Part shown: one piece after another, positions 10,584 to 41,571 of the stretch
Layout: every line of letters starts with the position of its first letter
How positions within the stretch are numbered: position 1 is the first letter of the stretch
The notes under the pieces: generated by a model
What the model was told of the DNA's origin: nothing
Database searches by the model: none
What the model saw: the letters and a program-made list of their open reading frames with translations, nothing else
Program-made: the position numbers and the translations under genes
NCBI GenBank assembly: GCA_018825365.1
Contig: JAHJEV010000003.1
Span: forward strand, 317,387 to 381,386
DNA from: Patescibacteria group bacterium
GTDB taxonomy: Bacteria; Patescibacteriota; WWE3; UBA101185; UBA10185
Direction: 5' to 3'
DNA length: 64,000 bases

Positions 10584-11129
10584 CTAATTTATAAAACCTA
10601 TCTTGTTTAAAGGCCAAAATCTAAATATCACACGACCTATAATTCTATTTTTATCAACAAGTCCTATGTACCTGGAATCCAAAGATTCCCCGCGGTTGTC
10701 ACCCAAAAAGGCATATTGCTGCGGTCCAAGTCTTAGTGCCCTACCCTCTTTTATTGCACTTCCCCCCACCGTGCATGTATCCTTATCAAGATATTCCTCT
10801 TCTAACTGGTATTTTTGGCCATCTTTTGAGACCACAACCCCACAATCGATTATTTTAAATATATCCCCAGGAATACCAATAACTCTTTTTATGAAATGCC
10901 TTTCGTTATCTCCCGGGGAAAGAAACACCACAATCTCCCCTCTTTTTAGCGGAATAAATATTCCGCTAATTCTATCCACAAGAATTCTTTCCCCAGAATG
11001 AAAAGAAGGTTCCATACTTGGCCCCCAAACTATTTCCACAGACGCAACAAAAAGGTACAATGCCAACACAATTACCATTGAGGATATGAGGGCTTCCGAA
11101 AGTTCTAAAATTAATTCTTTAAACTTCAT
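10584..11129 (-). CDS. lepB: Signal peptidase I
   Basis: 181 aa; N-terminal TM; SMEPSF catalytic-Ser box and GDNRGESLDSR box typical of the S26 family. Confidence 0.8.
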   Translation of the reverse strand: MKFKELILELSEALISSMVIVLALYLFVASVEIVWGPSMEPSFHSGERILVDRISGIFIPLKRGEIVVFLSPGDNERHFIKRVIGIPGDIFKIIDCGVVVSKDGQKYQLEEEYLDKDTCTVGGSAIKEGRALRLGPQQYAFLGDNRGESLDSRYIGLVDKNRIIGRVIFRFWPLNKIGFIN

Positions 11130-11157
11130 GACTGTAATATAATATCAGCATACATAG

Positions 11158-12789
11158 ATGAACGGAAATAGATCAAAGAAACAAGTAAATACAGAAAATA
11201 TCATAAAGGGAGACGCCCCAGAAGCTTATGGAATAAAAGAGATATGGGAGTTTATTAGATCAAATTTTGTTATTCTTTTTATCTTGGGAGGTTTAATCTT
11301 TCTTATTTATGCACCTCTAATAAACGGCCAGTTCCTAAATCTTGATGACCAAAACGGTCTCGTCTTGAATAAGCCACTTTATTCGTTAACCGAAACTTTA
11401 AAATTTCTGGATGCTCCAGCAATAGCAACCTCGATAATAGTACATCTGTTCGGTATGAATTCTACTGCTTTGCATGTTTTCTCCATACTCCTACACATTA
11501 TCTGCACTACTTTGGTTTTTATCTTAACTTACCTGCTATTTGGAAAAAAAGTATCACTAATAGCGGCATTTCTTTTTGCGACGCAACCTGTAAATACTGA
11601 GGCTATTGGATGGTTATCCGGAATGGGGTATCCATTTAAAACAGTGGCAATTTTACTTATGTTAATATTTTACGTTTTATTCAGAAAAAATAAAAAAATA
11701 TGGTATTTAATTGTTTCCTCAATCGTTTACTTGGCAAGCCAAATCACCGTCAGGGGAGGGGGTTGGATGTTTATTGCCCCTTTTCTTTTGGTAATTGTTG
11801 ATCAGTTTTTAATAGAGAAAAAAATAGAATTTAAAAACATTAAGTACTACACACCCTATATAGTTATATCTCTAATATTTGTGGTGATGCTTGTACCTGG
11901 GCTTTTCAAACAAAGAATCATAGATTTGAATACCTTATACTATGTCGACACAGAATCCGCCACACCTTTGATAAATAGAATCCCATATACAACCTACATG
12001 GCCTATAAACTTATCGCGTTCCCACTTACTCTTACTGTCTATCATGAGGGTGAAATTATAACAGGCGCCGGCTATGCCTTTATGATAGCCGTGACCGTTG
12101 CTATTATTTTTGGAATAGCATACCTTTGGAAAAAAGACAGAGTGATTGCAGGACTTCTGCTCACTATTCCTTTCTCTATTCTTCCATCGTATAGCCCCGT
12201 AATTATCGCCTGGACGGCAGCGGAAAGATATCTCTATATAGGATCAGCTTTTTTCTCAATGGGTTTGGCAATACTAATCTTAAGAATTGAGGAAAAAAAG
12301 AAGTGGAAGCAATTCGCAACTGTAGTAACCATAGTTTTGTGTCTTTTATACTCCATAAGAACATTCACAAGAAGTTTTGACTTCAAAAATAGCAAAAATC
12401 TGTGGCTTGCAACCAAAAAAGTCTCTCCCTACAGCTACCGAGTGTATAACAACCTGGGAGACGTTTACTCAAACGAAGGAGATTATGAACTTGCTATCGA
12501 AGCATTTAAAAGATCTGTAGCTTTAAAACCTGATTATGCAGACGCTGTCCACAATATCGGCTTTACGTATCTTCAAATAGGCGATGTTGCTAAAGCAAAA
12601 AAATATCTCCAACAATCGATAGATATAAACCCAAGGTTGCATCAATCTTGGTACAAGATGGCAAGAATATTCATGGCTGAAAAAAATTACCAAGAAGCAC
12701 AAAAATACATATCGAAAGCTTTCGAACTAAATCCTAAGGATGAAGCAGTTCAACAAGTGATGACAGAACTTAAGACTCTAGGATACTAA
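11158..12789 (+). CDS. Polytopic membrane protein with C-terminal TPR repeats, possibly a PMT/ArnT-like glycosyltransferase-fold protein
   Basis: 543 aa; many predicted TM helices over the first ~400 aa; C-terminal TPR-like repeats (YNNLGDVYSNEGDYELAIEAFKRSVALKPDYADAVHNIGFTY...). Confidence 0.55.
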   Translation: MNGNRSKKQVNTENIIKGDAPEAYGIKEIWEFIRSNFVILFILGGLIFLIYAPLINGQFLNLDDQNGLVLNKPLYSLTETLKFLDAPAIATSIIVHLFGMNSTALHVFSILLHIICTTLVFILTYLLFGKKVSLIAAFLFATQPVNTEAIGWLSGMGYPFKTVAILLMLIFYVLFRKNKKIWYLIVSSIVYLASQITVRGGGWMFIAPFLLVIVDQFLIEKKIEFKNIKYYTPYIVISLIFVVMLVPGLFKQRIIDLNTLYYVDTESATPLINRIPYTTYMAYKLIAFPLTLTVYHEGEIITGAGYAFMIAVTVAIIFGIAYLWKKDRVIAGLLLTIPFSILPSYSPVIIAWTAAERYLYIGSAFFSMGLAILILRIEEKKKWKQFATVVTIVLCLLYSIRTFTRSFDFKNSKNLWLATKKVSPYSYRVYNNLGDVYSNEGDYELAIEAFKRSVALKPDYADAVHNIGFTYLQIGDVAKAKKYLQQSIDINPRLHQSWYKMARIFMAEKNYQEAQKYISKAFELNPKDEAVQQVMTELKTLGY

Positions 12790-25247: not shown

Positions 25248-25868
25248 GTGAAAAAAATGATTAAAAAAATACTCAGTAAAATTCTAAGAAACAAAGGGCT
25301 TCTCACATTGTATGGGTCCCTTATTATCTTCTCGGGCGTAGTTGTAGGAGTCACTTACGCAGCTTTTTCCGACAAGTCCAATGTTCTTGGGGCAACCTTT
25401 ACGGTAGGAAGTGCAGACCTAAAGTTTTTGAGTAATCTTGCAAACGAGACCGACCCCACCACCTATGTAGATGAGCTTCCAGGGCCAAATTTCCAAAACG
25501 TAAGTCCTATTTGGCAAGAAAACTACACACTCAAGCTAATAAACCGTGGGACCTCAAAGCTAGCCATAACGACCAACTCTGCTTATGAAACTGCAAAAGA
25601 TCCTAAAGATTTAAGAAGTGACATCCTAGTTGAGATAATAAAATGGAACGATCTTGATAAAGACGGGGAAATAGATTCTGGTGAAGAAACCCTAAGTTTA
25701 GGAAAGAAAACTATAATAAAATGGAAAACGGAGGGGTTTAGCCTAGGAGAATTAGAAGCCGGACAGATAATACCGATAATATTAAGATTCACTGCCCCCA
25801 CCTTAACAGATACACAACAAGGCGCAACCGGAATATTTGATTTTGAGTTTAAGTCGATACAAATGTAA
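25248..25868 (+). CDS. Secreted TasA/camelysin-like protein with a SipW-cognate class signal peptide
   Basis: 206 aa; N-terminal hydrophobic segment then VTYAAFSDKSNVLGATFTVGSADLKF, matching the SipW-cognate signal consensus (...TyAyFSDtE...NtFtaGtldL) seen in TasA/CalY-family proteins; immediately upstream of a SipW-type peptidase. Confidence 0.55.
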   Translation: MKKMIKKILSKILRNKGLLTLYGSLIIFSGVVVGVTYAAFSDKSNVLGATFTVGSADLKFLSNLANETDPTTYVDELPGPNFQNVSPIWQENYTLKLINRGTSKLAITTNSAYETAKDPKDLRSDILVEIIKWNDLDKDGEIDSGEETLSLGKKTIIKWKTEGFSLGELEAGQIIPIILRFTAPTLTDTQQGATGIFDFEFKSIQM

Positions 25869-27416: not shown

Positions 27417-29726
27417 CTAAGATGGATTGTTTTTCTGAGGAAAATTCTCACCAGTAAAATCTTCGGGATCAAAATCCAAATCCGAATCAAAACCATCGCT
27501 CATAGGTTTAGCCTGAAAATCGTTTTGAAGTACTTCCCTTCCCCTACTTCCAGTAACCTCCGCTCCTATCAACCCATTTTCTTCCATCATATCAATGATC
27601 CTAGCTGCTCTGTTATAACCTATCGCAAGTTTTCTCTGAAGAAGCGACGCGGAAGCTTTTCCCGCTGATTTAACAATATCAAGCGCCTTTTCATACAACT
27701 CATCACCCTCCCTGTCTACACCACCCCCACCCTTTTTCATAGAATCAGTTGGTGTGGCTAAAACTTCTTCTCTATAATCAGGTTCTATTCCCTGAGACTT
27801 TAAAAACTCAACTAAATCACTGGTCTCTTTTTCGGATATGTATGCCCCCTGAAGCCTTATTGGCTTCATAACCTCCGGGGGTACGAAAAGCATGTCTCCC
27901 CTACCAAGAAGCTTTTCAGCCCCGGGTTGGTCAATAATAACTCTTGAGTCTATTTGGCTTAGAACTTGGAAGGCTATTCTGCAGGGAATGTTGGCTTTTA
28001 TTAGACCTGTAATAATATCGGTAGATGGTCTTTGAACTGCTAAAACAAGATGGATACCAGTTGCCCTTGCAAGCTGGGCAATTCTAATAATGCTTTTCTC
28101 AATTCCGGCAGGATCCCTTATCATGATATCTCCGAGCTCATCAACAACTAAAACAATGTAAGGCATCACCTGAATACCTGACTTCTCGTTATAAGACTCA
28201 ATATTTTTCACTCTTGCTTGCTCAAACAGCTTGTATCTTTTTTCCATTTCATCAACCAACCATCTAAAAACCGACGGGGCTTTATCCATATCGGTAACTA
28301 CGGGAGTGAGAAGGTGTGGTATTCCTTCGTAGTGTATTAGCTCAACTCTTTTTGGATCTACCAAAATAAACTTCACCTCCTGCGGAGTTGCTCTAAATAA
28401 AATTGAGAACAAAAGATTATGAATAAATATTGATTTACCAGAACCAGTAGTTCCGGCAATCAAAAGGTGTGGCATTTTTCCAATGTCACAAGTCAAAACT
28501 CTTCCGGCCACATCTTCTCCAAGAACCACCCCCAACTTTGATTTGAGATTTTTCATGGCATCTGTGTTTATCAACGATTTGAAATAAACTAGAGTCCGTT
28601 TGGTGTTTGGAACCTCAATTCCAATTAGAGATTTTCCTGGTATTGGGGCCTCGATTCTGACTGAGCCTGTGGGAGAGGCTAAGGCCAAAGCAAGATTCCC
28701 CTGGAGATTTGAAATTTTTGAAATATTCGTAACCGATTTTGGCTTTACCGCGTATTGTGTAACGGAGGAACCGACTTTAACATTCTCCGGATCTATATCA
28801 ACGTCGACACCAAAATCTTTTAGTGTATCCTTAATGATTTTTACTCTTTTCTCGGCTTCAGATGTATCCAACACCCTCACTGGTGGATCAGCAAGCAAGG
28901 AATTTGACGGGTAATCCCAGATTCTATCGGAAGGTATTCTTGATAATTGAATGGGAGACGCTAAAACCAAAGAATCCACAGTATTATTAGAAACACTGTG
29001 CTGAGGTTCGGACATAGATTGAATAACTTCAAAAAGTGGGGCTTGTTCTGGCTCCCCGTCCTTTCTTTCCTTGTCTGTCTTTTCTTCTTCCTCAAAACCA
29101 CCAACAGAACCAACATTCACTTCAACTTCATTTTCAGAAAATCCTTCTCTTTTCCTAAAGTGGAACATAAAACTAACCTTTGAAAAGAAATTTGAAATTT
29201 TTTCATTCTCTTTAAAAAACTTTATAACACTCTCAAATGAAATGTTTGAAATTAAAATTACCGCGGTAAGAAATATACAAATCAAAACAAACACCCCGCC
29301 GGTCTTACTTAAGCCCCCAACCAGAAGGCTAGATACTTTATAACCCAAAAGTCCCCCTCCCCCACCGGATTTTGCTAAAGATAGCCCTTCATTTAATGGT
29401 ATAAAAACATGAGAAAGTCCCGAAAGGGCAATCGTGCAAAGAAAAATACCCAAAAGTATTCTAAATTCCTTGATTTTCGGGCTTAGTTTATCAGCAAAAA
29501 TTATTCCAAAATCACCTAATAGGAAAGGAATAAAAAGTGCGGCCTTACCAAAAACAAGCTTCAGGAATCCTTGGATTCTAGCGTTTGCTGGGTAAGAGGG
29601 AGCAAAAAATGAAACCAGACCTATTATTGCAGCTGTAATAAAAACGATGGAAATAATTGACCTTGTTATATCTGGTCTGAGGTTACATCGAATCTTAAAT
29701 TTTCTACGTCTTCCTCTTCTGGACAT
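27417..29726 (-). CDS. ftsK: DNA translocase FtsK/SpoIIIE
   Basis: 769 aa; N-terminal TM helices, linker, motor domain with Walker A GTTGSGKS, C-terminal gamma winged-helix (LLQRKLAIGYNRAARIIDMMEENGLI). Confidence 0.9.
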   Translation of the reverse strand: MSRRGRRRKFKIRCNLRPDITRSIISIVFITAAIIGLVSFFAPSYPANARIQGFLKLVFGKAALFIPFLLGDFGIIFADKLSPKIKEFRILLGIFLCTIALSGLSHVFIPLNEGLSLAKSGGGGGLLGYKVSSLLVGGLSKTGGVFVLICIFLTAVILISNISFESVIKFFKENEKISNFFSKVSFMFHFRKREGFSENEVEVNVGSVGGFEEEEKTDKERKDGEPEQAPLFEVIQSMSEPQHSVSNNTVDSLVLASPIQLSRIPSDRIWDYPSNSLLADPPVRVLDTSEAEKRVKIIKDTLKDFGVDVDIDPENVKVGSSVTQYAVKPKSVTNISKISNLQGNLALALASPTGSVRIEAPIPGKSLIGIEVPNTKRTLVYFKSLINTDAMKNLKSKLGVVLGEDVAGRVLTCDIGKMPHLLIAGTTGSGKSIFIHNLLFSILFRATPQEVKFILVDPKRVELIHYEGIPHLLTPVVTDMDKAPSVFRWLVDEMEKRYKLFEQARVKNIESYNEKSGIQVMPYIVLVVDELGDIMIRDPAGIEKSIIRIAQLARATGIHLVLAVQRPSTDIITGLIKANIPCRIAFQVLSQIDSRVIIDQPGAEKLLGRGDMLFVPPEVMKPIRLQGAYISEKETSDLVEFLKSQGIEPDYREEVLATPTDSMKKGGGGVDREGDELYEKALDIVKSAGKASASLLQRKLAIGYNRAARIIDMMEENGLIGAEVTGSRGREVLQNDFQAKPMSDGFDSDLDFDPEDFTGENFPQKNNPS

Positions 29727-29776
29727 TAAGACTATAATATCACGAAAATATTAGGGTTTCAAAGGGAAAGAACAAC

Positions 29777-31501
29777 CTATATTGTAATAAAATGAACGAT
29801 AATCATCGGTTGCATCGATGTTTCTTTCCTCAGATAGTTTCCTATTTCGTTTTCCAGCTTCTTTTTTATGTTGGTGATATTCTGTTTACCAGAATTGAGC
29901 TTGCCCAATCTTTTTCCAATAAACTTTTTCGATTTGTTCATTAAATCCTGGGAATCCTTAACATATATGAATCCGCGGGTTATAATTTCAACCCTATCTA
30001 GCATGGGCTGATTCTTTCTCGATACAGGAATTGCAACCACAAAAACCCCCTCTGAGCAAAGCTGATTTCTATCTCTCACGACCACCGGATTTAGTTCCTC
30101 CAACTTATTACTACCCATATAAATCGGTTTTGTCTGAACATGGTCTCCCTTAGTGGCTTTATTAAATAAAAAATTGACCGAATCTCCCTCCAAACACTCA
30201 AAGACTCTATCTTTTGCAATCCCAATGAAATTTAAGACATTGGTGTAGGCTCTCATTTTCGTAATACTTCCTCCAATCGGGATAAAATACTTGGCGTTAA
30301 CCATTTTAGTTAGCTTTTCGATATCTCCCTTAACGGCATGTCCCGATACATGTAAGTTCTCTTGGATTTCTCCATAGATAACGTTAGCTCCTTTCAGAGT
30401 AAGTGCGTCCATAACCTTTTCTACCATTATGTCTGCCCCGGGAGGGTTTGGATCTCCCGAAAAAATCACGATAGCATCTTTTTCTAACGTAATACTCTCG
30501 TGCTCCCCCCTACTTAACCTGCTAAGAGAGGATCCCGACTGTCCGTAACAACCGGCTATCAAATATACAAGTTCGCCCTGATCGTATTTTTGGCATTCCT
30601 GTTCTTTAATAAAGAAATCGTCGGGGAAGGGAAGATACCCCAACCTTCTTGCTACATCAACCATCTGCTCTACAGACCTACCACTTGCTACCAACTTTCT
30701 TCCAAGTTTCTGGGCCGCATTCATAATCTGGTACATTCTGGAAATATTTGATGACATTGTCGTGACAAAAATTTGCTTTTTTCCCGCTCTGTCAAAAAGT
30801 TTAATAAATGTATCGTTTAGGGTACTTTCTGATTTTGTATGACCCTCGGATGTGATACCGAGACAATCAGACAAAAGGCACAAAACCCCTTCCTTTCCAT
30901 ATCTTTCTATCGAAGAAACATCGGCGGGTTTATCTAAAACCGGCGTCGCATCAAATTTGTAATCTGAAATATGAAGTATCAATCCTTCTGGAGATCTTAT
31001 GGCAAAACCCATTGTTTCGGGTATTGAATGGTTCATTCTAAAAGCAGAAACTTTAAATTTTCCAAGATCCACAGTCCCAGTTGTCGGGTCCATTAGATGA
31101 TAATGAAAATTCTTACCTAACTCTTTTAACGCACCATCATTAAGTTTTACTTTCAAAAACTCACCAACAAGCTTACTTGCATATACTTGGATATCGGGAA
31201 GCTCAAGAAGAAGATTTGGCACAGCTCCAACATGATCTTCATGTCCGTGAGTTATAAAAAGTCCCTTTATTTTATGTCTATTCTCAATAAGATAAGTGAA
31301 ATCCGGGATCAAAACATCAACACCGGGCATATCAAAAATATCTGGAAACCCTATACCACAATCCACAATTATAATATCCTCGCCATACTCATAAACAGTA
31401 AGGTTTTTGGTAACTTTTTCAGTTCCGCCAAGAGTAATTATTCTCAAGGCAGTTCTTTCTGCATACGCTTTCTGTGGTTTTTTAGTGTTGTAAAACTGCA
31501 C
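29777..31501 (-). CDS. rnj: Ribonuclease J (metallo-beta-lactamase/beta-CASP RNase)
   Basis: 574 aa; HGHEDHVGA motif; beta-CASP region and C-terminal domain. Confidence 0.85.
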   Translation of the reverse strand: MQFYNTKKPQKAYAERTALRIITLGGTEKVTKNLTVYEYGEDIIIVDCGIGFPDIFDMPGVDVLIPDFTYLIENRHKIKGLFITHGHEDHVGAVPNLLLELPDIQVYASKLVGEFLKVKLNDGALKELGKNFHYHLMDPTTGTVDLGKFKVSAFRMNHSIPETMGFAIRSPEGLILHISDYKFDATPVLDKPADVSSIERYGKEGVLCLLSDCLGITSEGHTKSESTLNDTFIKLFDRAGKKQIFVTTMSSNISRMYQIMNAAQKLGRKLVASGRSVEQMVDVARRLGYLPFPDDFFIKEQECQKYDQGELVYLIAGCYGQSGSSLSRLSRGEHESITLEKDAIVIFSGDPNPPGADIMVEKVMDALTLKGANVIYGEIQENLHVSGHAVKGDIEKLTKMVNAKYFIPIGGSITKMRAYTNVLNFIGIAKDRVFECLEGDSVNFLFNKATKGDHVQTKPIYMGSNKLEELNPVVVRDRNQLCSEGVFVVAIPVSRKNQPMLDRVEIITRGFIYVKDSQDLMNKSKKFIGKRLGKLNSGKQNITNIKKKLENEIGNYLRKETSMQPMIIVHFITI

Positions 31502-31511
31502 GGATTAAATT

Positions 31512-32147
31512 CTACAGACCCAAGTTCAGTTGTCCATCGAAATCCTGACCTGAGATCTGCGGTAGCTTTACTCCCAACTCCAATATTTCTTCTGCTTTCT
31601 TCAGAACTTCTGGAATTCTTTTGAAGTCGACTCTCAAGTCATTCATCATCGAGTTTCCCCTCAACGCTGCGGCAGGATGGTAAACCGGATAAATTAAGAA
31701 GTCCGCCGCCCTTATTAAGTTCCCCCTATCTCTGGAAATTTTTCCGTCCCGATAAAAATAGTTCATAGCAAATCTTCCCAGTGTGACAACTAAAACGGGA
31801 TGTATGGTTTTTAATTGGAGTTCCAAAAAAGGCTTGCACGTCGCAATTTCATCAGGCAACGGATCTCTATTTTCCGGAGGCCTGTGTTTGACAATATTTC
31901 CGATCCAGACATCTTCTCTTTTGTATCCTATCTCTTTAAGAAAGGTTTCCAAAAGTTTCCCCGCCCGTCCAACAAATGGTCTTCCAGTAACATCTTCGTT
32001 AAAACCAGGAGCCTCACCAATAAAAACCATTTTTGAATTAATATTACCCTCGCCCGGAACAGCATTAGTCGCCGACCGGCAAAGTCTACACTTCTTACAA
32101 TCCTTGATATTCTTAGTGATTTCTTCGAGTAATTTCTCTTTTTCCAT
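31512..32147 (-). CDS. Uracil-DNA glycosylase, family 4 (Fe-S type)
   Basis: 211 aa; CKKCRLC cysteines and GEAPGFNEDVTGRPFVGRAGKLL motif typical of family-4 UDGs. Confidence 0.8.
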   Translation of the reverse strand: MEKEKLLEEITKNIKDCKKCRLCRSATNAVPGEGNINSKMVFIGEAPGFNEDVTGRPFVGRAGKLLETFLKEIGYKREDVWIGNIVKHRPPENRDPLPDEIATCKPFLELQLKTIHPVLVVTLGRFAMNYFYRDGKISRDRGNLIRAADFLIYPVYHPAAALRGNSMMNDLRVDFKRIPEVLKKAEEILELGVKLPQISGQDFDGQLNLGL

Positions 32148-32150
32148 AAG

Positions 32151-33212
32151 TTACTGGGGCAGGTAGTATTTTAAATTATCTGCGTTGATAGTTACTTTTT
32201 CAGACTTTCCTTCAACAATCTCCTTTGCAACTTTCCTACAAATTGCCTCCAGTGTTCTTCCAAGGCTTCTGATTCCTGAATCATACCCAAAAGGTCTTAC
32301 TATACCCGACCATAAATCCGGATCTATTTCAAGTTCTTCCGGTTTTAAGCCAGCGTTTTCCCGAATCTTAGGAAAAAGGTAGTCTCTTGAAATAACAAGT
32401 TTCTCAACATCGCTGTATGAAGGCATTTTTATTACCTCCATCCTATCCATAAGCGCGGTCGATAAAGTTCCGGTATTGTTTGCTGAACAGATGAACATTA
32501 CATCTGAAAGATTTATAGGGTAATCAACATAGTGATCTCTAAATGCTACGTTTTGTTTGGGGTCCAAAAGCTCAAGAAGTACTGCCATAATATCCATTCT
32601 CAATCCCTGCTCCCCGCTTGCTTTATCTACCTCATCCAAAAGGATAACCGGATTTTTAACCCCCGTTTTTATCAGCGCCTTAATAATCTGTCCGGGTTCT
32701 GCTTCCGGAAATGCTTTGCTTTTCCCCCTTAATTCCAGAGTAGAGCCAATTCCACCCATAGAAATTCTTTCAAACTTCCTGCCTAAAGTATCGGCAATAG
32801 AATAAGCCAACGTAGTTTTACCAACACCCTGCAGACCTACAAGAAGAATGACCGGAGATCTGGCTATGGCATCCTTGCCTCTTTTTTTAAGTAAAATTAC
32901 TGTGGAAAGGTATTCCAAAATCCTATCCTTCGCATATTGCATCCCGTAGTGGTTTTTCTCCAAGGACTCCTTTGCATATACCAAATCCAACCTATCTTTA
33001 GTCTCAGCAACCCAAGGAATTGAGGTAACAACCTCTATGTATCTGGCAAGGGTATCGAACTCAGTTGCGTAGTGACCAATATTGGCCATTCTGTTGAGCC
33101 TTTCGATCATCTCAACCAGTCTTTCTTTAAGATCCTCGGGAAGACCTTTAGTAGACTCCACTTTTTTATCAAGTGTCTTTAATTCTTCAAATAAATAATC
33201 TTTTGTCGCCAT
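32151..33212 (-). CDS. Stand-alone Lon-like AAA+ ATPase module with no LON N-domain and no S16 protease domain
   Basis: 353 aa; Walker A LLVGLQGVGKTTL, Walker B ILLDEVDKA, and extended colinear similarity to the Lon ATPase region (LELLDPKQNVAFRDHYVDYPINLSDVMFICSANN...LMDRMEVIKMPSYSDVEKL; GIRSLGRTLEAICRKVA). The ORF stops directly before the UDG gene, leaving no room for a protease domain. Confidence 0.75.
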   Translation of the reverse strand: MATKDYLFEELKTLDKKVESTKGLPEDLKERLVEMIERLNRMANIGHYATEFDTLARYIEVVTSIPWVAETKDRLDLVYAKESLEKNHYGMQYAKDRILEYLSTVILLKKRGKDAIARSPVILLVGLQGVGKTTLAYSIADTLGRKFERISMGGIGSTLELRGKSKAFPEAEPGQIIKALIKTGVKNPVILLDEVDKASGEQGLRMDIMAVLLELLDPKQNVAFRDHYVDYPINLSDVMFICSANNTGTLSTALMDRMEVIKMPSYSDVEKLVISRDYLFPKIRENAGLKPEELEIDPDLWSGIVRPFGYDSGIRSLGRTLEAICRKVAKEIVEGKSEKVTINADNLKYYLPQ

Positions 33213-34189
33213 TATTTAACAATCAAATAATTAGAACCTAGCCTTCTGAAAGCCTCGATAATTGATTTTAGCTCTTTAGACGAAGTTTTTGCTAATAGTA
33301 AGTTAAGTGTCTCCTTACCTGTGCTATTGAGAGTCATCAGAAAAGCTTTTCCCTCTACGGGAATACTTGGTTTAATAGATGCAAAATTAGGATTAAGACC
33401 TAAACTTTTGGTTAAACCATCTTTGGAGGATGTCACCTCAGTCATAAGAATCTGACTTTCCGAAACTACCAAAGCATCCTCAATTTTTTGAATCTTCCAC
33501 CCCGCATAATCCTTTATTTTCAGATCGGGGTTTGTTGGAAAGAAAATAAACACCATACTATTAACACCTTCAGTGTTTTTTGCAAAAAAGGAATAGCTCG
33601 TACCAAGATCTTTAGCATTATCTATAACAAAAGATGAAAAACCTATCCCTAAAAATCCAAAATATGATTCTACTAAATCCACACCGTTGAAATTTGCATA
33701 TAAATCCACGTCATAAGGAACAAACTCGGCCGCTTTTTTATCAACAAACGGGCCGTTTACTATAGAAGTCTCCAAATATACTGTGTTTTTATTGTCAGTT
33801 TCTTTGGTCTGTGTGTTAACACTCTGCGAAGTTTGCTTGACTGGCCCTTCCTCAACTTTTTTAGGAAACACCTGCATAGTTAAGTAATAAAAACAAACCG
33901 TAAGTCCGACTAATACTACCGACAATGCTAGAAAAATTTTTAAATTGGCAAATGTTAAGATTTTCGGAATAGTTTTCTCAACGGACTTTTTTACGGCCGA
34001 ACCAACTCCAACTTTAGGCTTTATTTCATAAACATCCCTTGGAGAATAATCTTTTAACTGAAGGTTTTCGGGTAGCACACTCCCGCACTTAGAACAAAAG
34101 TAAATATCGTTTCTATGAAGCTCAAGCTTACAAAAAGGGCAGATTCTTTTCATTACCATTATTATATTGATTGAAGACCTAACCAACAA
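33212..34189 (-). CDS. Membrane protein with N-terminal cytoplasmic zinc-ribbon, single TM and an extracytoplasmic domain
   Basis: 325 aa; CPFCKLELHRNDIYFCSKCGSVLPE zinc ribbon, TM (LALSVVLVGLTVCFYYL), then a ~230-aa domain of unknown function; its stop overlaps the start of the Lon-like ATPase by 1 nt. Confidence 0.5.
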   Translation of the reverse strand: MLVRSSINIIMVMKRICPFCKLELHRNDIYFCSKCGSVLPENLQLKDYSPRDVYEIKPKVGVGSAVKKSVEKTIPKILTFANLKIFLALSVVLVGLTVCFYYLTMQVFPKKVEEGPVKQTSQSVNTQTKETDNKNTVYLETSIVNGPFVDKKAAEFVPYDVDLYANFNGVDLVESYFGFLGIGFSSFVIDNAKDLGTSYSFFAKNTEGVNSMVFIFFPTNPDLKIKDYAGWKIQKIEDALVVSESQILMTEVTSSKDGLTKSLGLNPNFASIKPSIPVEGKAFLMTLNSTGKETLNLLLAKTSSKELKSIIEAFRRLGSNYLIVK

Positions 34190-34204
34190 GCATAACTGCT
34201 TGGT

Positions 34205-36427
34205 TTACCTTCTTCCGCCTCTGTCAAAAGTGCCTCTTCTACCTCCGGCTCTGTCATTCCCACCTCTAAAACCGCCATTTCTTGGTCTTGCGGGTCTTTC
34301 ATTTGCAACATAATTTGGATCTTCAACAGCTCTTTTTGATAGACTGAATTTTCCGTTCTCGCCTGTTTCGATTACTTTCACTTTGACGGCGTCACCTATC
34401 TTTAAGTAATCCTCAACATTTTTGACATATGTATCTGCAATCTCACTCACATGCAAAAGTCCTACTTTTCCCGGTAAAACTTCAACCAAAGCTCCGAAAT
34501 CAAGCAAGTCTTTAACTGTTCCGTCGTAAACTTCTCCAACTTTAACGTCTTTTGTTAATGCTTCAACTATCTTTAGGGCCTTTTCAGCCTTTTCCTTATC
34601 AGGGGATGAAACTACAACCTTTCCGGTATCTTCAATTGATATCTCGGTCCCAGTTTTTTCCTGAATTTCTTTAATAGTTTTTCCTCCGGTTCCTATAATC
34701 ACACCAATTTTTGAAGGGTCAATCATTATAGTCAGCATCTTTGGAGCATACTTGGAAACTTCCTCTCTTGGAGAACTTATCGCCTTTTGCATTTCACCCA
34801 GGATGTGCATTCTTCCCTCTTTTGACTGATCAAAAATTTCTGAAAGAAGTTCCATGGGAATACCTTTTGCTTTTATGTCGCACTGAATTGCCGTAACACC
34901 GTCCTTAGTTCCAGCTATTTTTAAATCCATAAATCCACCGGCATCTTCTTCACCGGCAAGGTCAGTTAGGATTTTGTACTTCTTAAACGTTTCATCCTCA
35001 ACAATAAGTCCCATTGCGATACCGCTTACAACATCCTTGATAGGAACACCTGCGTCCATCAACGCAAGGGCAGAGCCACAAGTCGCTGCCATGGAGGAAG
35101 AGCCATTTGAAGATATGATTTCTGAAACAAGCATTATTGTGTATGGAAACTCCTCCTGGTCCGGAATTACCGGTCTTAAAGCCTTTTCCGCAATCATTCC
35201 GTGACCTATTTCTCTTGCTCCGGGTGCTCCAAATCTGCCAACCTCACCGACAGAGTATGGGGGGAAGTTGTAATAGTGAAGGTATCTTTTATTTTTCTCA
35301 CCGTACATATCCTGAATTAAAAGTTCATCCGACGGAGATCCAAGAGTACAGATTGTTAAAGACTGTGTTTCACCTCTTGTGAAAAGGGCACTTCCGTGTG
35401 TTCTTGGTAAAACTCCAACCTTAATAGAAATTGGTCTAACTTCCGTGGTTTTTCTTCCGTCAATTCTTTTTCCTTCATCCAAAACTATTTTTCTTACAAC
35501 TTCTTTTTTAATGTTCTCAAAAGCAAGTTCCATATCTACTTTTTTGTATGTTCCTTCGAATTTTTCAAACATCTCCTCTCTTACTTCCCAAAGCTCATCG
35601 TTAATATCCTGTTTTCCGTCATCTTTTCCTTTGGATCTCATTATTTTCTCTACCTTTTCACCAACTAAAGCTTGAATTTCATTCATTGTCTCCTCAGATA
35701 GTGCTTTTGATTTGTATTCATATTTTTTATTTTCCGGATTTACTTCTTTAACAAAATCTTCAATAAGTTTTAGAAGGGGTTTTACACCGTCTCGAGCAAA
35801 GTTTATAGCTTCAAGTATTTTTTCCTCAGGAAGTATGTTAGCCTCAACTTCTGCGGCAAGAAATTTTTGATCCTCGCCTGAGAATGAAACCATCATGTCC
35901 AAATCGCTTTCTTCTTCAAGCTGTTTTAGGGTTGGGCACATCACAAGCTCCCCATTTATCAAGCCAATTCTCGCAGTTATCATATGGTGGTACCAAGGGA
36001 CATCGCTCGCTTGCAAACACGCGGAGGATGCAATCATACTTAAAAACTCGGGGTCGGCTTCTTCATCCAAGGATAAAACCATAACAACAAGCTGAACCTC
36101 ATCCATGTAATCCTTGGGAAATAGCGGTCTTATTGCGTGATCTACAGTTCTTCTGGCGATAATCGCATCATCAGTAGCCCGTCCTTCTCTTTTTACAAAC
36201 CTTGAGCTTTTTATGCTGCCACTTGCATAAAGCTTTTCTTCATACTGAACTCTCAAACCCAAAAAATCCGTGTCAATAGTGGGCTCACCAGATACAACTG
36301 TAACTAACAAAACCGAATCGCCATAAGTTGCCTTGACTGCCATATTGGCGCGCAAAGCTAACTCTCCGGTTTCAAGGACTAACTTTTTACCGGCGAAATC
36401 TATTTCTTTTCTTATAATTTTATTCAT
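34205..36427 (-). CDS. pnp: Polyribonucleotide nucleotidyltransferase (PNPase) with C-terminal RGG-rich tail
   Basis: 740 aa; two RNase PH domains, KH and S1 domains; tail RPARPRNGGFRGGNDRAGGRRGTFDRGGRR. Confidence 0.95.
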   Translation of the reverse strand: MNKIIRKEIDFAGKKLVLETGELALRANMAVKATYGDSVLLVTVVSGEPTIDTDFLGLRVQYEEKLYASGSIKSSRFVKREGRATDDAIIARRTVDHAIRPLFPKDYMDEVQLVVMVLSLDEEADPEFLSMIASSACLQASDVPWYHHMITARIGLINGELVMCPTLKQLEEESDLDMMVSFSGEDQKFLAAEVEANILPEEKILEAINFARDGVKPLLKLIEDFVKEVNPENKKYEYKSKALSEETMNEIQALVGEKVEKIMRSKGKDDGKQDINDELWEVREEMFEKFEGTYKKVDMELAFENIKKEVVRKIVLDEGKRIDGRKTTEVRPISIKVGVLPRTHGSALFTRGETQSLTICTLGSPSDELLIQDMYGEKNKRYLHYYNFPPYSVGEVGRFGAPGAREIGHGMIAEKALRPVIPDQEEFPYTIMLVSEIISSNGSSSMAATCGSALALMDAGVPIKDVVSGIAMGLIVEDETFKKYKILTDLAGEEDAGGFMDLKIAGTKDGVTAIQCDIKAKGIPMELLSEIFDQSKEGRMHILGEMQKAISSPREEVSKYAPKMLTIMIDPSKIGVIIGTGGKTIKEIQEKTGTEISIEDTGKVVVSSPDKEKAEKALKIVEALTKDVKVGEVYDGTVKDLLDFGALVEVLPGKVGLLHVSEIADTYVKNVEDYLKIGDAVKVKVIETGENGKFSLSKRAVEDPNYVANERPARPRNGGFRGGNDRAGGRRGTFDRGGRR

Positions 36428-36557
36428 TTTTCTTCTTTTTATGGGGATTTATCAAGAGGATTAAGACTCAAGATACTGTGCACTTCCTTATGCAAAATAT
36501 CTCACTTCCTAACCCCGTTTAATATTTCCTCAATTAATAAATATTTACGGATTATCC

Positions 36558-36827
36558 TTACTTGGACAACTCTAACTTTTCAACTAGTGAGCCGTACCTC
36601 TCCTCATCTTTTCTTTTCAAGTAAGACAAAAGCCTTCTTCTTTTGTTTACCATCTGAAGCAAACCTCTTCTTGAATGGTTATCTTTCTTATGAAGCTTCA
36701 AATGGTCAGATAGTTTAACAATTTTCTCACTTAACAAAGCCACCTGAACCTCTGGGGATCCTGTGTCAGCCTCATGAAGTCGGCTTGATTTTATGATCTG
36801 TACCTTCTTTTCCTTGATTAGAGCCAT
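36558..36827 (-). CDS. rpsO: 30S ribosomal protein S15
   Basis: 89 aa; typical S15 sequence; upstream of pnp as in most bacteria. Confidence 0.9.
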
Positions 36828-36872
36828 AATTAACTAAAAAATACTAGCAAAAACCCGAAAAAAATGCAAGGG

Positions 36873-37523
36873 TTAGATGCCCTTCCTGCTTGTAATTCCC
36901 CTAAGCAAGGCTTCCGCAGCCTTCTCGTTGACCCTTAAGTTCCATCTTAAGGATTTTTCTAAAACAAGCAGACTTAAACTATTTACATTAGAATCAATAA
37001 TATTGATAGTTCCAAATCTTTGGTTTCTCTCTGTATTATCAAGATTTAATATATCTGATTTTGCGAAATCTTCGTAAAGTTCGCTGTATGTTTGACCAAA
37101 ATCCTCCGGCATTTGGGCACCGATTGTGATTATCGTGTCAAAATTAAAACCTCTAACTACTGGCATTACTCGGGCAAGATCAAAATCCTTACTAATTGGG
37201 GCAACTGTTAGGTATAAAACATTGTTTTCGGTTGAGTAATGAACCTTTGAGGCATCTGTTCCGGAATAATCAACGGAAACCAAAAGTTCTCTTCCCGTGA
37301 CATTTGAAGTAATATCAACATCTTTAAGGTCGCCAAATTCCTCTGGTCTAGAGCCCGGATAAACTATAGTTACATTCTTGTTTTCTTCTCTAAGCATGTG
37401 AAAAAGACCGAGTGCTGATGCGAACGCGTCAACACCCGCAATTTTTGAAGGTACAATGGCAATACTTTTTGCCCCATGGATAAGATCTATTATTTGACTT
37501 GTTTTATCAACTTCATTATTCAT
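36873..37523 (-). CDS. Degenerate DHH-family (NrnA-like) phosphoesterase homolog, probably catalytically inactive
   Basis: 216 aa; colinear with the NrnA N-terminal DHH domain, but the HRHxDxD motif is replaced by VPSKIAGVD and the GDTG motif by TSRKG; no DHHA1 domain. It occupies the rbfA/truB position between infB and rpsO. Confidence 0.45.
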   Translation of the reverse strand: MNNEVDKTSQIIDLIHGAKSIAIVPSKIAGVDAFASALGLFHMLREENKNVTIVYPGSRPEEFGDLKDVDITSNVTGRELLVSVDYSGTDASKVHYSTENNVLYLTVAPISKDFDLARVMPVVRGFNFDTIITIGAQMPEDFGQTYSELYEDFAKSDILNLDNTERNQRFGTINIIDSNVNSLSLLVLEKSLRWNLRVNEKAAEALLRGITSRKGI

Positions 37524-37631
37524 ATAAATTTAGTTGGCAGGGATACTTTAAGCGAGAGTTTACTATCGTATCAGAATCACAGGGATTCTACAACATAGAC
37601 CCTATAGTGTCAAGGAGAAACGGATATTGGA

Positions 37632-39122
37632 TTAAAGCACTTCCAGGTACATTTCTTCTGCAATTTCATTGTACTGGGGTTTTAGCAGCACACCGCACTC
37701 ATTGTCTTTACCTACCACATCGGTATCATCTTTACCTTTTTTAAGTTTTTTAACCGCTGCGTAAAAGAGTGGTTCGTCCTCTTTTGTTAGATCAGCTGGG
37801 TTTTTATCATATATTGCAACCCTGGATTTTACCTTTAAAGCTCCGGCTAAAACCTTGCAACCAATGACAATATCCCCAGATTTCAGTTTGAAAAGTTTGA
37901 CAACCTTCGCTCTACCCTTAATTTTTGACGTTTCCGTGGTTGCAGTTCCTTCAATAAGCTTTTCTACATCATCAATAAGTTCATAAATGGTTCTATAAGA
38001 CCTGACTAAAACGCCTGAGGATTCCGCTAAATCTTCAACTGCAGCCGGAATTCTTACGTCAAATCCTATTACAACACCCTTTCCTCCTTGAGCCAGCATC
38101 ACATCAGACTCATTCATGTCCCCAGTTCCAGTGTGTAAAAACTTTAATGCATAAGTAGTTTCGGCCGATGACGTAACCAAATCAGCCAGACTGCCCTTAA
38201 CGGCCTCCAAAGTTCCCTGAGTATCAGCTTTTAATACCACGGAGATGGTTCTTTTTGCGTCTTTTCCGATAATTTCAACCTTATCCTCGTCAATTGCAAG
38301 TTCGGCAAGTTCACTTCCTTTTGCTAAAATCAAATCTCCAACATGTGGAACCTTACTAAATCCCAGTATTTCAACAGGATCAGAAGGTCCTGCCTGTTTA
38401 ACAAGATTTCCTTCATCGTCAGATAAAGACTTTACTTTTGCTTCACATCCGGAAGCAGAAACCCTGTCCCCGAGCCTTAAAGTCCCATTTCTAACAATAC
38501 ATGAGACCACAACACCTTTTTTTCTATCCAAGCGAGATTCAATAACAACAGCTTCAAGATCTCCGTTTGGGTCTCCCTTAAGACTTAACATCTCCGAAAG
38601 TGCGATTATTGCGTCCAAAAGCGTATCTACACCCTCACCTGTCTTGGCAGAAAGTTCAACTGATAGCTCATTCCCACCCCAATCTTCCACCAAGACACTC
38701 TCTAAAGATAATTCTTGCTTAACTTTTCTTGAATCCGCCCCTGGTTTATCTATTTTATTTATTGCAACGATGATTGGAGCTTGGGCTGCCTTAATATGAG
38801 AAATTGCCTCTTTGGTCTGAGGCTTAACTCCTTCATCCGCAGCCACAACCAAAACGACGATGTCTGCGGCCTTTCCGCCTCTTGCTCTCATTTGTGTAAA
38901 AGCAGCGTGTCCGGGTGTATCAATAAAAGTTATTTTTTTATTTTTATGGGTAATTTGATAGGCACCTATATGTTGAGTTATACCACCATATTCTTTTTCG
39001 GTGAGGTTTGTTTTCCTTATAGCATCAAGTATGCTTGTTTTACCATGGTCGACGTGCCCCATAATCGTGACAATCGGAGCTCTGATATTTTTTTCACTTG
39101 TGTTTTTCTTAGTATTAACCAT
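37632..39122 (-). CDS. infB: Translation initiation factor IF-2, short form lacking a long N-terminal region
   Basis: 496 aa; G-domain [12 protein letters not shown] and DTPGH, followed by the IF-2 beta-barrel domains. Confidence 0.9.
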
Positions 39123-39177
39123 GTCTTCTTTTTTATTTTGGCAGTCATTAATTTAAATATATTAAAACTGCGTCTCA

Positions 39178-40389
39178 TTACTCTTTGTCCGCAACTTGTT
39201 TTGCAGCGGCAGTTTCATCAGATTTAGAAGCCTCTTCTTCTGCTGGTTCCTCTATTGGTTCTTCCGTCTTTTCCATTGCGGCTTCGACTGCGGCCTTCTC
39301 TTCGGCTTTAGCTTGCTTTTTTACTTCCTCAGCATCATTGAATTTCTTTATTTCAGCATCCCAGACTCCGACAACCTTGTCACTTGTCGATTCCCTAACC
39401 GAGCCACCTTGTACAGCATCGCTTGAAAATACACCAGCAATTCCCTTAATATCGATCTTCCATTTAGTAAGTTTATTAGCTAATCTTGCGTTTTGGCCTT
39501 CTTTTCCGATTGCCAAGCTTTGCTGATCTTCAGGAACAGTAACTGTTGCTCTCTTCTCTGCCTGATCAAGCTCAACTTCTGATACTTTTGCGGGTGACAA
39601 ACTGGAAGCAACAAATTTTTCGGTGTTGTTTGAAAATGGAACAATGTCAATCTTTTCTCCAAAAAGCTCTGAAATTATTGACTGAACTCTTACACCTTTT
39701 TGTCCCACACAGCTTCCAACCGGATCAACCTTTTCATCTTTTGAAGAAACGGCCATTTTAGTCCTGGAACCGGCCTCTCTTGCTATTGCTTCTATAACGA
39801 CAACTCCGGAGGCAATTTCAGGAACTTCCTGCTCAAAAAGTCTCACAATAAATTTTGGATCTGCCCTTGATACGATTATCTCAGTTCCCCTCGGAGTATC
39901 TTGAATATCTTTAACCAAAACCTTAAGTCTCTGATTCATTCTGTAATTTTCGGCAGGAACCTGCTCGCCTCTTGGCATCACACCCTGGCTTCTGTTTTTG
40001 CCCATATCCAAGGTTATAATTCCCTTTTCCATTCTAAATACTATTCCAGTTACTATCTGACCTATTTTTTCTTTAAATTCCGCCGTGACAACGTCCTTTT
40101 CTGTTTCTCTGATCTTTTGAACCATTACTTGTTTAGCAGTTTGGGCCGCTATTCTTCCAAAACCGGACGGAGTTACGTCCATTCCGTCTTTTAATATTCT
40201 TACCTCACCTGTATCGGGGTTTAGATCCACAATAATTTCCTCAAGTTCAACTACTTCTCCAATTTCTTTTCTATCTTTTTTATATGCTGTAGCTAAAGCT
40301 GATTTAACCGATTCAAGAACACTTTCTACAGTTATTCCTTTTTCGGCTGCAACCTGACTTATCGCTGCATTAAATTCTGACATTGCCAT
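39178..40389 (-). CDS. nusA: Transcription termination/antitermination factor NusA with acidic C-terminal tail
   Basis: 403 aa; S1 and tandem KH domains; C-terminal Glu/Ala/Lys-rich tail. Confidence 0.9.
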   Translation of the reverse strand: MAMSEFNAAISQVAAEKGITVESVLESVKSALATAYKKDRKEIGEVVELEEIIVDLNPDTGEVRILKDGMDVTPSGFGRIAAQTAKQVMVQKIRETEKDVVTAEFKEKIGQIVTGIVFRMEKGIITLDMGKNRSQGVMPRGEQVPAENYRMNQRLKVLVKDIQDTPRGTEIIVSRADPKFIVRLFEQEVPEIASGVVVIEAIAREAGSRTKMAVSSKDEKVDPVGSCVGQKGVRVQSIISELFGEKIDIVPFSNNTEKFVASSLSPAKVSEVELDQAEKRATVTVPEDQQSLAIGKEGQNARLANKLTKWKIDIKGIAGVFSSDAVQGGSVRESTSDKVVGVWDAEIKKFNDAEEVKKQAKAEEKAAVEAAMEKTEEPIEEPAEEEASKSDETAAAKQVADKE

Positions 40390-40578: not shown

Positions 40579-41571
40579 TTATAAGTGAGATACTAACCTT
40601 GCAACCTCTTGTCGCAATCTATAAGTATTCCCATGAGAAATAAGCCCCAAATAAGATTGAGTGGTCTCCTTGTCACCGCCCTTATACACAATATTTCTAA
40701 ACATCCGCCTTTTAGTAGATGTCCTTAAAATTCTGCGATCGGGAAAGTGCACCCAACCGAGAAAGTCAATCCCAGACGCTACTGTTCTTAGCAGAGTTTT
40801 GTCTTCGTGAAGTTCCAAACGAAGGATTTCCCATAGAAATTCTTTGATCATGGGTAAAAGTCCTGCAAGTTCATTCTTATCGTGTGACATAAAAACAAAA
40901 TCATCTGCATAACGGAGATAAAACTTTACTTTCAAAACATGCTTAACGAATATATCAAATTTATTCATATAAATATTTGCAAAAAGCTGAGATGTGAGAT
41001 TTCCCAAAGGAATGCCTTTATTACCACCCGGGTCAAAACTATTAATAACCTCAGAAAGAACCCAAATAAGATTGTCATCTAAAATCGACTCTCTAAGCAT
41101 GCCAATAAGAATATCGTGGTCTATCGATGCAAAAAACTTCTTTATGTCACACTTTAGAACCCAGACGGTTTTTGTATTATTTTTTGAAACCTTAAAAGAA
41201 AACTTACAAAATCTATTAAGTGCGGCATGTAAACCTTTATCTATGCGACAGGAATAAGAATCAGCTATAAATTTTCTATCAAAGAATAGATAAAGTGTTC
41301 TATACAAAGCGTGGTGAAATAATCTATCCCTAACGGTAGCTTTATGAATAACTCTTGGCTTTGGATCGGAGATTTTAAATACCGTATATTTTGAGTGCTT
41401 ATAACTTTTGGTTTCCAAATCTTCATGTAGCTGAAGTATGTTTCCCATTAAGTTGCGTTCAAAAACCTGTACATCTTTTCTTGAACGCTTGCCATTCCTA
41501 AATTCCTTCCAAGCGACAAGAAGATTATCAAGAGAAATGATATCCTGATATTTATGAGTGAATTTAATCAT
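40579..41571 (-). CDS. Diversity-generating retroelement (DGR) reverse transcriptase
   Basis: 330 aa; RT motifs 1-2 (RVIHKATVRDRLFHHALYRTL, SYSCRIDKGLHAAL), the DGR-specific motif-4 variant LGNLTSQLFANIYMNKFD ([ILV]GxxxSQ rather than the group II QGxxxSP), and YLRYADDFVFMSHD; no maturase or endonuclease domains; adjacent TR/VR pair. Confidence 0.85.
   Translation of the reverse strand: MIKFTHKYQDIISLDNLLVAWKEFRNGKRSRKDVQVFERNLMGNILQLHEDLETKSYKHSKYTVFKISDPKPRVIHKATVRDRLFHHALYRTLYLFFDRKFIADSYSCRIDKGLHAALNRFCKFSFKVSKNNTKTVWVLKCDIKKFFASIDHDILIGMLRESILDDNLIWVLSEVINSFDPGGNKGIPLGNLTSQLFANIYMNKFDIFVKHVLKVKFYLRYADDFVFMSHDKNELAGLLPMIKEFLWEILRLELHEDKTLLRTVASGIDFLGWVHFPDRRILRTSTKRRMFRNIVYKGGDKETTQSYLGLISHGNTYRLRQEVARLVSHL

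Follow-up and report, generated by a model that had tools for sequence, protein, structure and literature searches.

By definition, Lon is a fusion of an ATPase and a protease, and roles of its ATPase that do not depend on proteolysis, chaperone-like or DNA-linked, have long been debated, mostly by way of catalytic-site mutants. ClpX docks adaptors and substrates through a C4 zinc-binding domain at its N-terminus, and it unfolds independently of ClpP; ClpXP and HslUV are two-component AAA+ proteases. Bacteria of the Candidate Phyla Radiation (CPR) have a very reduced proteostasis toolkit. Here, a 64,000-nucleotide stretch from a Patescibacteria group bacterium of the WWE3 lineage (assembly GCA_018825365.1, contig JAHJEV010000003.1, positions 317,387 to 381,386; the window) was found to encode a stand-alone Lon-type AAA+ ATPase of 353 amino acids (aa), preceded by the gene of a zinc-ribbon membrane protein (the partner). 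In all Lon proteases the ATPase domain is followed by the protease domain on a single chain (PMC9569914). Judged from its sequence and those of its relatives, the window ATPase is an intact Lon AAA+ module from which two domains are permanently gone, the N-terminal one for substrate recognition and the S16 Ser-Lys protease domain. A probability of roughly 0.5 is given to the reading that it works as a stand-alone, ATP-driven unfoldase or remodeller for which the ribbon protein is a tether, an adaptor or a client.

The ATPase gene and its parts are given below. Residue conservation was counted in 52 family members, and residue roles were assigned by alignment to LonA.

32151 to 33212, minus strand: stand-alone Lon-type AAA+ ATPase, 353 aa: N-terminal helical bundle, alpha/beta ATPase domain, Lon lid; LON N-domain and S16 domain both lacking
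32859 to 33212, minus strand: N-terminal helical region, aa 1-118, homologous to the LonA helical segment ahead of the AAA+ domain (E. coli ~241-350)
32811 to 32837, minus strand: Walker A, G-L-Q-G-V-G-K-T-T, aa 126-134; G126, G129, G131, K132 and T133 invariant (52/52)
32685 to 32729, minus strand: pore loop 1, R-G-K-S-K-A-F-P-E-A-E-P-G-Q-I, aa 162-176, remodelled relative to LonA
32631 to 32648, minus strand: Walker B, V-I-L-L-D-E, aa 189-194; D193 and E194 invariant (52/52)
32580 to 32627, minus strand: region of pore loop 2, aa 196-211, where two residues, GL, are inserted relative to LonA
32478 to 32480, minus strand: sensor-1 asparagine N245 (52/52)
32442 to 32444, minus strand: arginine finger R257 (E. 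coli R484), within LMDRME; 52/52
32268 to 32270, minus strand: sensor-2 arginine R315 (E. coli R542), within DSGIRSLGR; 52/52
32196 to 32360, minus strand: Lon lid, alpha-helical small subdomain, aa 285-339

Pfam placed AAA (PF00004) at aa 122-261 (E 5e-20) and Lon_lid (PF22667) at aa 285-339 (E 2.5e-13) of the ATPase and nothing else; neither Lon_C nor LON_substr_bdg (PF02190) had a Pfam match in the 353 aa. The NCBIfam model TIGR00763 ('lon') aligned over model positions 253-572 of 795 only, and the protein scored below the curated equivalog cut-offs of both TIGR00763 (332.6 vs 608 bits) and NF008053 (262.7 vs 891 bits). In a PDB search the best matches were all Lon (B. subtilis 3M6A, E 7e-77), query residues 9-351 corresponded to residues 249-579 of E. 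coli Lon, and the ATPase was coextensive with the crystallised 'Lon AAA+ domain' fragment 6N2I. An AlphaFold2 (AF2) monomer model (pLDDT 73) returned only Lon chains among its top 50 Foldseek matches in PDB. The initial annotation, made from the window alone, had claimed an alignment to the Lon ATPase region only, and the Pfam, TIGR00763 and PDB boundaries agree with it; the motifs it relied on (LDPKQN, LSDVMFICSANN and LMDRMEVI) are present, and the LON N-domain and S16 protease that it found missing were likewise missing from the domain annotation. Within the N-terminal region, the AF2 model contained helices at aa 9-20, 26-45, 49-64, 77-87 and 92-110, and a comparison of family N-termini revealed a conserved motif, [DE][FY]xF[ED]EL, close to the N-terminus.

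The chain stops 14 aa past the Lon lid, at the position of the linker between AAA+ and protease domains in LonA, and the C-termini of the family align to positions 578-579 of a 778-aa LonA. The stop codon (TAA at 32153-32151) is followed by a 3-nt spacer and then by the ATG of the next gene, which is a uracil-DNA glycosylase gene as had been annotated:

31512 to 32147, minus strand: UDG-superfamily gene (PF03167, E 5e-33), starting 3 nt past the ATPase stop

Because the UDG gene starts there, no room is left for an in-frame or frameshifted protease domain.

Using queries and profiles built from six genuine Lons, neither S16 nor the Lon N-domain (Lon-N) was matched by tblastn or profile in any frame of the 64-kb window, nor in ~1.1 Mb of flanking DNA of related genomes, within ~10 kb of the ATPase gene. 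The S16 scan covered all frames of the window and of 68 loci; the contexts of two distant family members contained no S16 either, and the home-made Lon-N profile matched only six non-CPR full-length Lons. A lone weak S16/Lon-N match, in locus L016, was discarded as an antisense shadow ORF. A protease domain hidden behind a frameshift or stop, which the initial annotation had raised as the finding that would overturn the loss, was thus ruled out by six-frame tblastn and profile searches of the window and all loci. The rest of the window contained no protease and was comprised of a housekeeping core: EF-G, SecA, SerRS, S4, RpoA, S9, RadC, a release factor, FtsK, RNase J, PNPase, S15, IF2, NusA, DnaJ, RNase Y, GluRS, RecJ and a class II aminoacyl-tRNA synthetase.

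The ATPase belongs to a large family. In a large protein database, more than 120 clusters from Patescibacteria, WWE3 and similar metagenome-assembled genomes (MAGs) had 70-100% identity to it, with lengths of 348-416 aa, nearly all 353-370 aa; the database names of these proteins are 'AAA family ATPase' and the misleading 'ATP-dependent Lon protease'. Among species-representative genomes, a scan yielded 60 loci, 51 of which contained a stand-alone ORF of 352-386 aa (49-99% identity), and the full-length Lons among the 60 (778-908 aa, 36-39% identity) came from non-CPR organisms only. A HMMER search of 1.8 billion representatives added distant protease-less relatives at 42-55% identity, two of them named Dojkabacteria and some with low-complexity N- or C-terminal tails. 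No Rosetta-stone fusion was found: N-terminally extended protease-less relatives (P0151, P0155-P0161 and P0163) contained only low-complexity P/Q/S-rich tails, with no ribbon and no TM segment. Altogether, 151 representatives were annotated with home-made N, A and P profiles (N-domain, AAA+ module and protease) and their AAA+ modules were placed on a neighbour-joining tree, a rough one based on BLOSUM distances and without bootstrap support values. On this tree the protease-less proteins formed one pure clade of 31-33 tips with zero S16-bearing members, apart from canonical N-A-P LonA. The family is thus a single protease-less lineage, its named members being Patescibacteria (WWE3, Dojkabacteria and relatives). 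Full-text literature searches returned no description of a protease-less Lon in CPR/Patescibacteria, and the main text of a Patescibacteria genetics paper did not mention Lon, AAA or protease.

Across loci, the ATPase and NusA both had a median identity of 69% to the window protein, compared with 77% for S15, 64% for UDG, 63% for IF2, 60% for PNPase and 51% each for RNase J and FtsK. By this measure the ATPase gene is under strong constraint, equal to that on NusA.

Taxon labels on many of the MAGs looked unreliable ('Saccharibacteria' and 'Gammaproteobacteria', from one bulk submission). Loci L051, L053 and L054 and many 'binchicken' MAGs contained CPR-type synteny and a protease-less Lon, yet were deposited as 'uncultured Gammaproteobacteria' or 'Candidatus Saccharibacteria', one of them as a contig of 1.57 Mb. 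Either the taxonomy of these MAGs is unreliable or the family extends beyond classical CPR.

The retrieved representatives, outside the window, also included proteins called as tandem Lons (P0136-P0153, P0164-P0183 and others) that contained two to three Lon-type AAA+ modules, one S16 domain and no N-domain. Lon is normally described with a single AAA+ module per chain. The architectures were A-A-P in 22 representatives and A-A-A-P in seven, the lengths were 890-1830 aa, and one protein was named Candidatus Dependentiae; these would be 'double- or triple-ring' Lons.

The ATP-hydrolysis hallmarks of an active AAA+ protein of the HCLR clade (Walker A and B, sensor-1, arginine finger and sensor-2) were kept in 52/52 members, including N245, which we take to be equivalent to N473 of E. 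coli Lon, and the ATPase is in all likelihood catalytically competent. Some regions carried signatures of the family. In Walker A, LQ stands where LonA has PP (GLQGVGKTT vs GPPGVGKTS; L127 in 52/52, Q128 in 48/52). Pore loop 1 followed the pattern RGxSKx[F/Y/L/R/M/T]PEAEPGQI, compared with RGHRRTYIGAMPGRI in LonA, with the core YIGAM changed to [F/Y]PEAE. Among the 52 sequences the aromatic position was occupied by F (27), Y (14), L (5), R (3), M (2) or T (1), and it was followed by P, not Ile or Val, in 49/52 and then by an acidic E-A-E (E172 in 51/52). The GL insertion of pore loop 2 was present in 48/52; L051-L054, which diverge most, lack it.

Directly upstream of the ATPase gene is the partner gene, with the following features.

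33212 to 34153, minus strand: partner gene, a single-pass membrane protein (N-in/C-out) of ~313 aa; other possible starts at 34159 (ATG) and 34189 (TTG)
34085 to 34141, minus strand: cytoplasmic C4 zinc ribbon, C-P-F-C-x11-F-C-S-K-C, aa 5-23, the most conserved partner segment
33869 to 33952, minus strand: transmembrane (TM) helix, aa 68-95, a helix in the AF2 model with a hydropathy peak of 2.41
33215 to 33796, minus strand: extracytoplasmic alpha/beta domain, aa 120-313, fast-evolving, with few conserved positions (VPYD, invariant P146, G268)
33210 to 33214, minus strand: TAATG junction, in which the partner stop (33214-33212) and the ATPase start (33212-33210) have one base in common
34205 to 36427, minus strand: PNPase gene, immediately upstream of the partner and abutting the ATPase gene in partner-less lineages

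The partner had no Pfam, NCBIfam or PADLOC family, and Pfam Zn-ribbon matches to it were weak; a profile search of the large protein database, with a word prefilter, found at least 11 proteins. Of the ribbon positions, R3, C5, C8, F19, C20 and C23 were invariant in 36 sequences. The AF2 model, built on a shallow alignment of 15 sequences (pLDDT 78), contained a disordered basic linker between ribbon and TM helix and a confidently folded outer domain (pLDDT >90 over aa 140-313). Exactly one TM segment was found in 33/33 partner proteins, with a mean net charge of +5.3 on its N side and -7.9 on its C side, and the ribbon is accordingly predicted to face the cytoplasm, the same compartment as the ATPase. 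The ribbon, single TM helix and large outer domain of the initial annotation were recovered by the AF2 model and hydropathy, and its length was revised: the 325 aa run from a TTG (34189), the first residues of homologues are MKRICPFC or MVMKRICPFC (ATG 34153 or 34159), and the partner is therefore most likely 313-315 aa. Overall the partner has drifted to ~25% identity, vs 69% for the ATPase, while its ribbon cysteines stayed invariant.

Among the 51 stand-alone loci, 36 contained an upstream same-strand ORF of 226-347 aa with CxxC-x11-CxxC in its first 80 residues and a strong TM peak. The partner-ATPase gap ranged from -26 to +83 nt and was often -1 (L007, L008, L010, L011, L012, L015, L033 and L049), as at the TAATG of the window, where the 1-nt overlap had been annotated correctly; it reached +263 nt in the frameshifted copy of L035. 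The partner profile matched solely the ORF directly upstream of the ATPase, in ~38 loci including two frameshifted copies, plus two remnants, and had no match elsewhere in the locus DNA searched; the matches included two further WWE3 contigs. The partner gene was frameshift-split at L035 (9021-9964) and L040 (3211-4219) and reduced to short remnants at L038 (9697-9948) and L048 (3725-4030), either by ongoing loss or by assembly error. The pairing, whose absence from every related genome would have spoken against the initial annotation, was present in ~38/52 related loci; recurring in ~38 independent genomes, the two-gene arrangement is not due to chance.

The pair lies in a block with the conserved order DnaJ-NusA-IF2-x-S15-PNPase-[partner]-LonAAA-(NUDIX)-UDG-RNase J-FtsK. 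In the window (27417-40389) and in L001-L059 this gene order was stable though the proteins had diverged to 50-70% identity. The IF2 of the block is short (~496 aa), and the usual rbfA position is occupied by a small protein (~216 aa) with only a weak DHH match at its N-terminus. A NUDIX hydrolase gene of ~170-180 aa was present between Lon-AAA and UDG (~11050-11600) in L021, L022, L025, L028, L032 and L033, and the same insertion was present in L036, L037, L039, L044, L055 and L059. The block thus tolerates insertions at the ATPase-UDG junction but not between partner and ATPase. Scans for promoters and terminators gave no signal above shuffled expectation.

Other neighbours were found next to two distant protease-less members. 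In L068 (6133-7995) the gene of a 620-aa DUF4012 envelope protein ends 5 nt ahead of the ATPase. In L067 (4779-7204, 9529-10191) an M16 peptidase gene pair lies upstream, with an opposite-strand metallophosphatase gene between, and an M23 peptidase gene lies immediately downstream. These could be envelope or peptidase links, or coincidence.

Within the block of the window, a 330-aa reverse transcriptase (PF00078 RVT_1, E 1e-20; 40579-41571, minus strand) is encoded between dnaJ and nusA, just upstream of nusA. It may be the reverse transcriptase of a diversity-generating retroelement, a retron or a group II intron; the dnaJ-nusA interval contained none in the three related loci inspected at gene level (L001, L002 and L005). 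Elsewhere in the housekeeping region of the window, two ORFs had no Pfam match: 58021-59361 (minus strand, 446 aa) at E 1e-5 and 25248-25868 (plus strand, 206 aa) at E 1e-3.

Under the reading favoured here, the ATPase would assemble into a Lon-like hexamer that binds clients at its N-terminal face, and ATP hydrolysis would drive their unfolding or remodelling. Since the ring has no protease chamber under it, clients would be released and not degraded, as by ClpX without ClpP. The acidic, proline-containing pore loop suggests a specialised client range, possibly basic proteins, or a non-canonical grip. In WWE3-type lineages, and with less certainty, the partner may stand in for the lost N-domain, acting in trans where that domain acted in cis; docking of its ribbon on the ATPase would then anchor the ATPase at the membrane or direct it there. 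Another possibility is that the ribbon serves as a handle by which the ATPase pulls on the partner as its client. The fast-evolving outer domain of the partner might face the environment or a host cell. The ATPase has no hydrophobic segment (its maximum 19-aa hydropathy is 1.39, at the Walker A strand), so any membrane tethering would have to go through the partner. That it is an unfoldase or remodeller and no canonical Lon protease had been proposed in the initial annotation; the second half of this proposal agrees with the missing S16 and N-domain, and the first is the best reading of a function that is inferred only.

A bolder version, which we consider doubtful, holds that Lon was converted once, in a large Patescibacteria branch, to a protease-free ATPase recruited by the cytoplasmic ribbon of a single-pass membrane receptor, giving a two-component trans-membrane module, not described before, of an ATP-driven unfoldase and a fast-evolving surface domain. 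Such a module could remodel or extract envelope or host-contact proteins in epibiotic cells.

Several observations weigh against the unfoldase-and-partner reading. The pore-loop-1 aromatic was replaced (by L, M, R or T) in 11/52 sequences and the hydrophobic second position is Pro, so that canonical threading is not assured. In at least 12 lineages the gene just ahead of the ATPase is that of PNPase and the partner is missing (L001/2, L027, L029, L031, L034, L046, L051-54 and others), and because about a dozen lineages keep the ATPase alone, the partner cannot be obligatory for its core function. The whole 10-gene block is syntenic across genomes, and adjacency may therefore be inherited. Tight junctions are common in the window, with overlaps at 5/40 and gaps of 5 nt or less at 9/40 same-strand junctions. 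Since the surrounding gene order is conserved throughout, adjacency alone is no proof of a functional link. For the same reasons the description of the pair as translationally coupled holds for the 1-nt overlap itself, which is weak as evidence of a functional link.

It is on these points that the first alternative draws, namely that the two are neighbours only: the ATPase would be a soluble chaperone or unfoldase, and the partner an unrelated envelope protein co-transcribed in a packed housekeeping operon. This account is possible, though we lean away from it. Adjacency within the syntenic NusA-FtsK block could be inherited without selection, and the close junctions and partner-less lineages fit as well. 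ATPases of partner-plus and partner-minus genomes, compared at N-termini and pore loops, showed no convincing difference beyond phylogeny, their N-termini and motifs being the same with or without the partner. The frameshifted and remnant partners (L035, L040, L038 and L048) suggest dispensability, and the partner (25%) evolves far faster than the ATPase (69%). On the other hand, the partner was seen solely directly upstream of the ATPase in the DNA searched, the block accepts insertions elsewhere (NUDIX) and the pair was never split, and a conserved cytoplasmic ribbon is what would be expected if it contacts a highly conserved cytoplasmic protein. The exclusive position of the partner despite insertions elsewhere, together with its selectively conserved ribbon, favours a functional link.

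Improbable in our estimation is a split Lon, in which S16 encoded by a separate, distant gene would assemble in trans under the ATPase ring, so that the complex would still be a protease. Two-component AAA+ proteases are viable (ClpXP, HslUV), and the ATPase ends exactly at the domain linker, a natural fission point. According to the Lon literature, however, the A and P domains share a chain in every known Lon (PMC9569914). The products of a gene fission tend to remain neighbours, whereas searches of the window and of ~10 kb around the gene in 51 related and two distant genomes gave no S16, and no member of the protease-less clade carries S16.

Even less probable is a nucleic-acid-linked role together with the flanking PNPase, RNase J, UDG and FtsK, for example in remodelling degradosome or nucleoid proteins. 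Lon is known to bind nucleic acids, the crystallised fragment nearest to the ATPase bears the deposition name 'DNA-binding ATP-dependent protease La', and the S15-PNPase / UDG-RNase J-FtsK linkage is deeply conserved, with traces in a distant member. The block is nevertheless a generic housekeeping cluster, the distant member L067 lies among peptidase genes, Pfam found no nucleic-acid-binding domain in the ATPase, and the acidic pore loop (PEAE) would be unfavourable for threading nucleic acid, which argues against such threading.

A pseudogene or assembly artefact, that is, a truncated lon whose protease part was lost by frameshift, stop or misassembly, has a negligible probability, because the same boundaries recur in 51 genomes and more than 120 clusters from independent samples with invariant catalytic residues, the median identity is 69%, the next gene starts 3 nt past the stop, and a monophyletic, strongly constrained family of fixed length indicates real loss of the N-domain and protease.

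The family would represent a natural separation of the Lon motor from its protease: a long protease-less lineage with invariant ATP-hydrolysis residues and NusA-level conservation in minimal genomes. It makes the question of proteolysis-independent roles of the Lon ATPase directly testable with a natural protein, and it bears on protein quality control in CPR bacteria. The recurrent zinc-ribbon membrane partner is a concrete candidate adaptor or client.

Several known systems were compared with the locus. The initial annotation had likened the partner to membrane anti-sigma proteins, and it does resemble ZAS anti-sigma factors (RsiW/RseA-like; RseB/MucB sensors) in its layout, with a small zinc module in the cytoplasm, a single TM segment and a domain outside. 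This analogy found no support: the partner motif is CPxC-x11-FCxxC, a C4 ribbon and not HxxxCxxC, and the genes around the pair are PNPase, UDG, NUDIX and RNase J, with no sigma factor, and a ZAS system was rejected. A known anti-phage defence system was also rejected, as PADLOC gave the ATPase only generic P-loop/AAA matches (best DolB, E 4e-8, partial) and the partner none, and so was a phage or mobile origin, since the lon genes in phage records are all of the ordinary kind (~40% identity) and the locus lies in a housekeeping core. The partner had a structural match to a Treponema pallidum lipoprotein associated with the outer membrane, TP0453 (30kLP; PDB 3K8G), at only 9% identity, Foldseek E 9e-3 and TM-score ~0.3, from which shared function cannot be inferred; TP0453 is lipid-anchored, whereas the partner has an N-terminal TM helix.

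Archaeal, membrane-anchored LonB and FtsH resemble the proposed arrangement in the idea of an AAA+ ring held at the membrane. Both have their own TM segments and a protease domain, whereas the ATPase has neither. Its alignment to LonA contained insertions of 6 aa and 2 aa only, none of them between Walker A and B, and a LonB-type Lon was rejected because the AAA+ module has no TM insertion.

ClpX offers a functional analogy, an HCLR-clade AAA+ ring with a small C4 zinc module at the substrate-entry side. At this locus the zinc module belongs to a separate membrane protein, unfused, and its contact with the ATPase is hypothetical; there is no sequence relationship to ClpX. A ClpP-docking loop was not noticed in the ATPase, though no search aimed at one was made. 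In two Lentibacillus loci (L061, 7757-9037; L062, 7820-9109), clpX lies directly upstream of a full-length lon, and its N-terminal C4 domain (CSFCGK...C..C) was caught by the ribbon pattern, a parallel in position to the ribbon gene ahead of the CPR Lon-AAA.

The closest system is LonA (MEROPS S16; TIGR00763). The ATPase is collinear throughout with E. coli Lon 249-579 at 37-41% identity and has the same helical bundle ahead of the AAA+ domain, alpha/beta domain, Lon lid, Walker A and B, sensor-1, arginine finger and sensor-2. It differs in having no LON N-domain and no S16, either on the chain or within ~10 kb, in its altered Walker A and pore loop 1, and in a pore loop 2 longer by 2 aa. It descends from the LonA AAA+ module and fails the defining features of a Lon protease.

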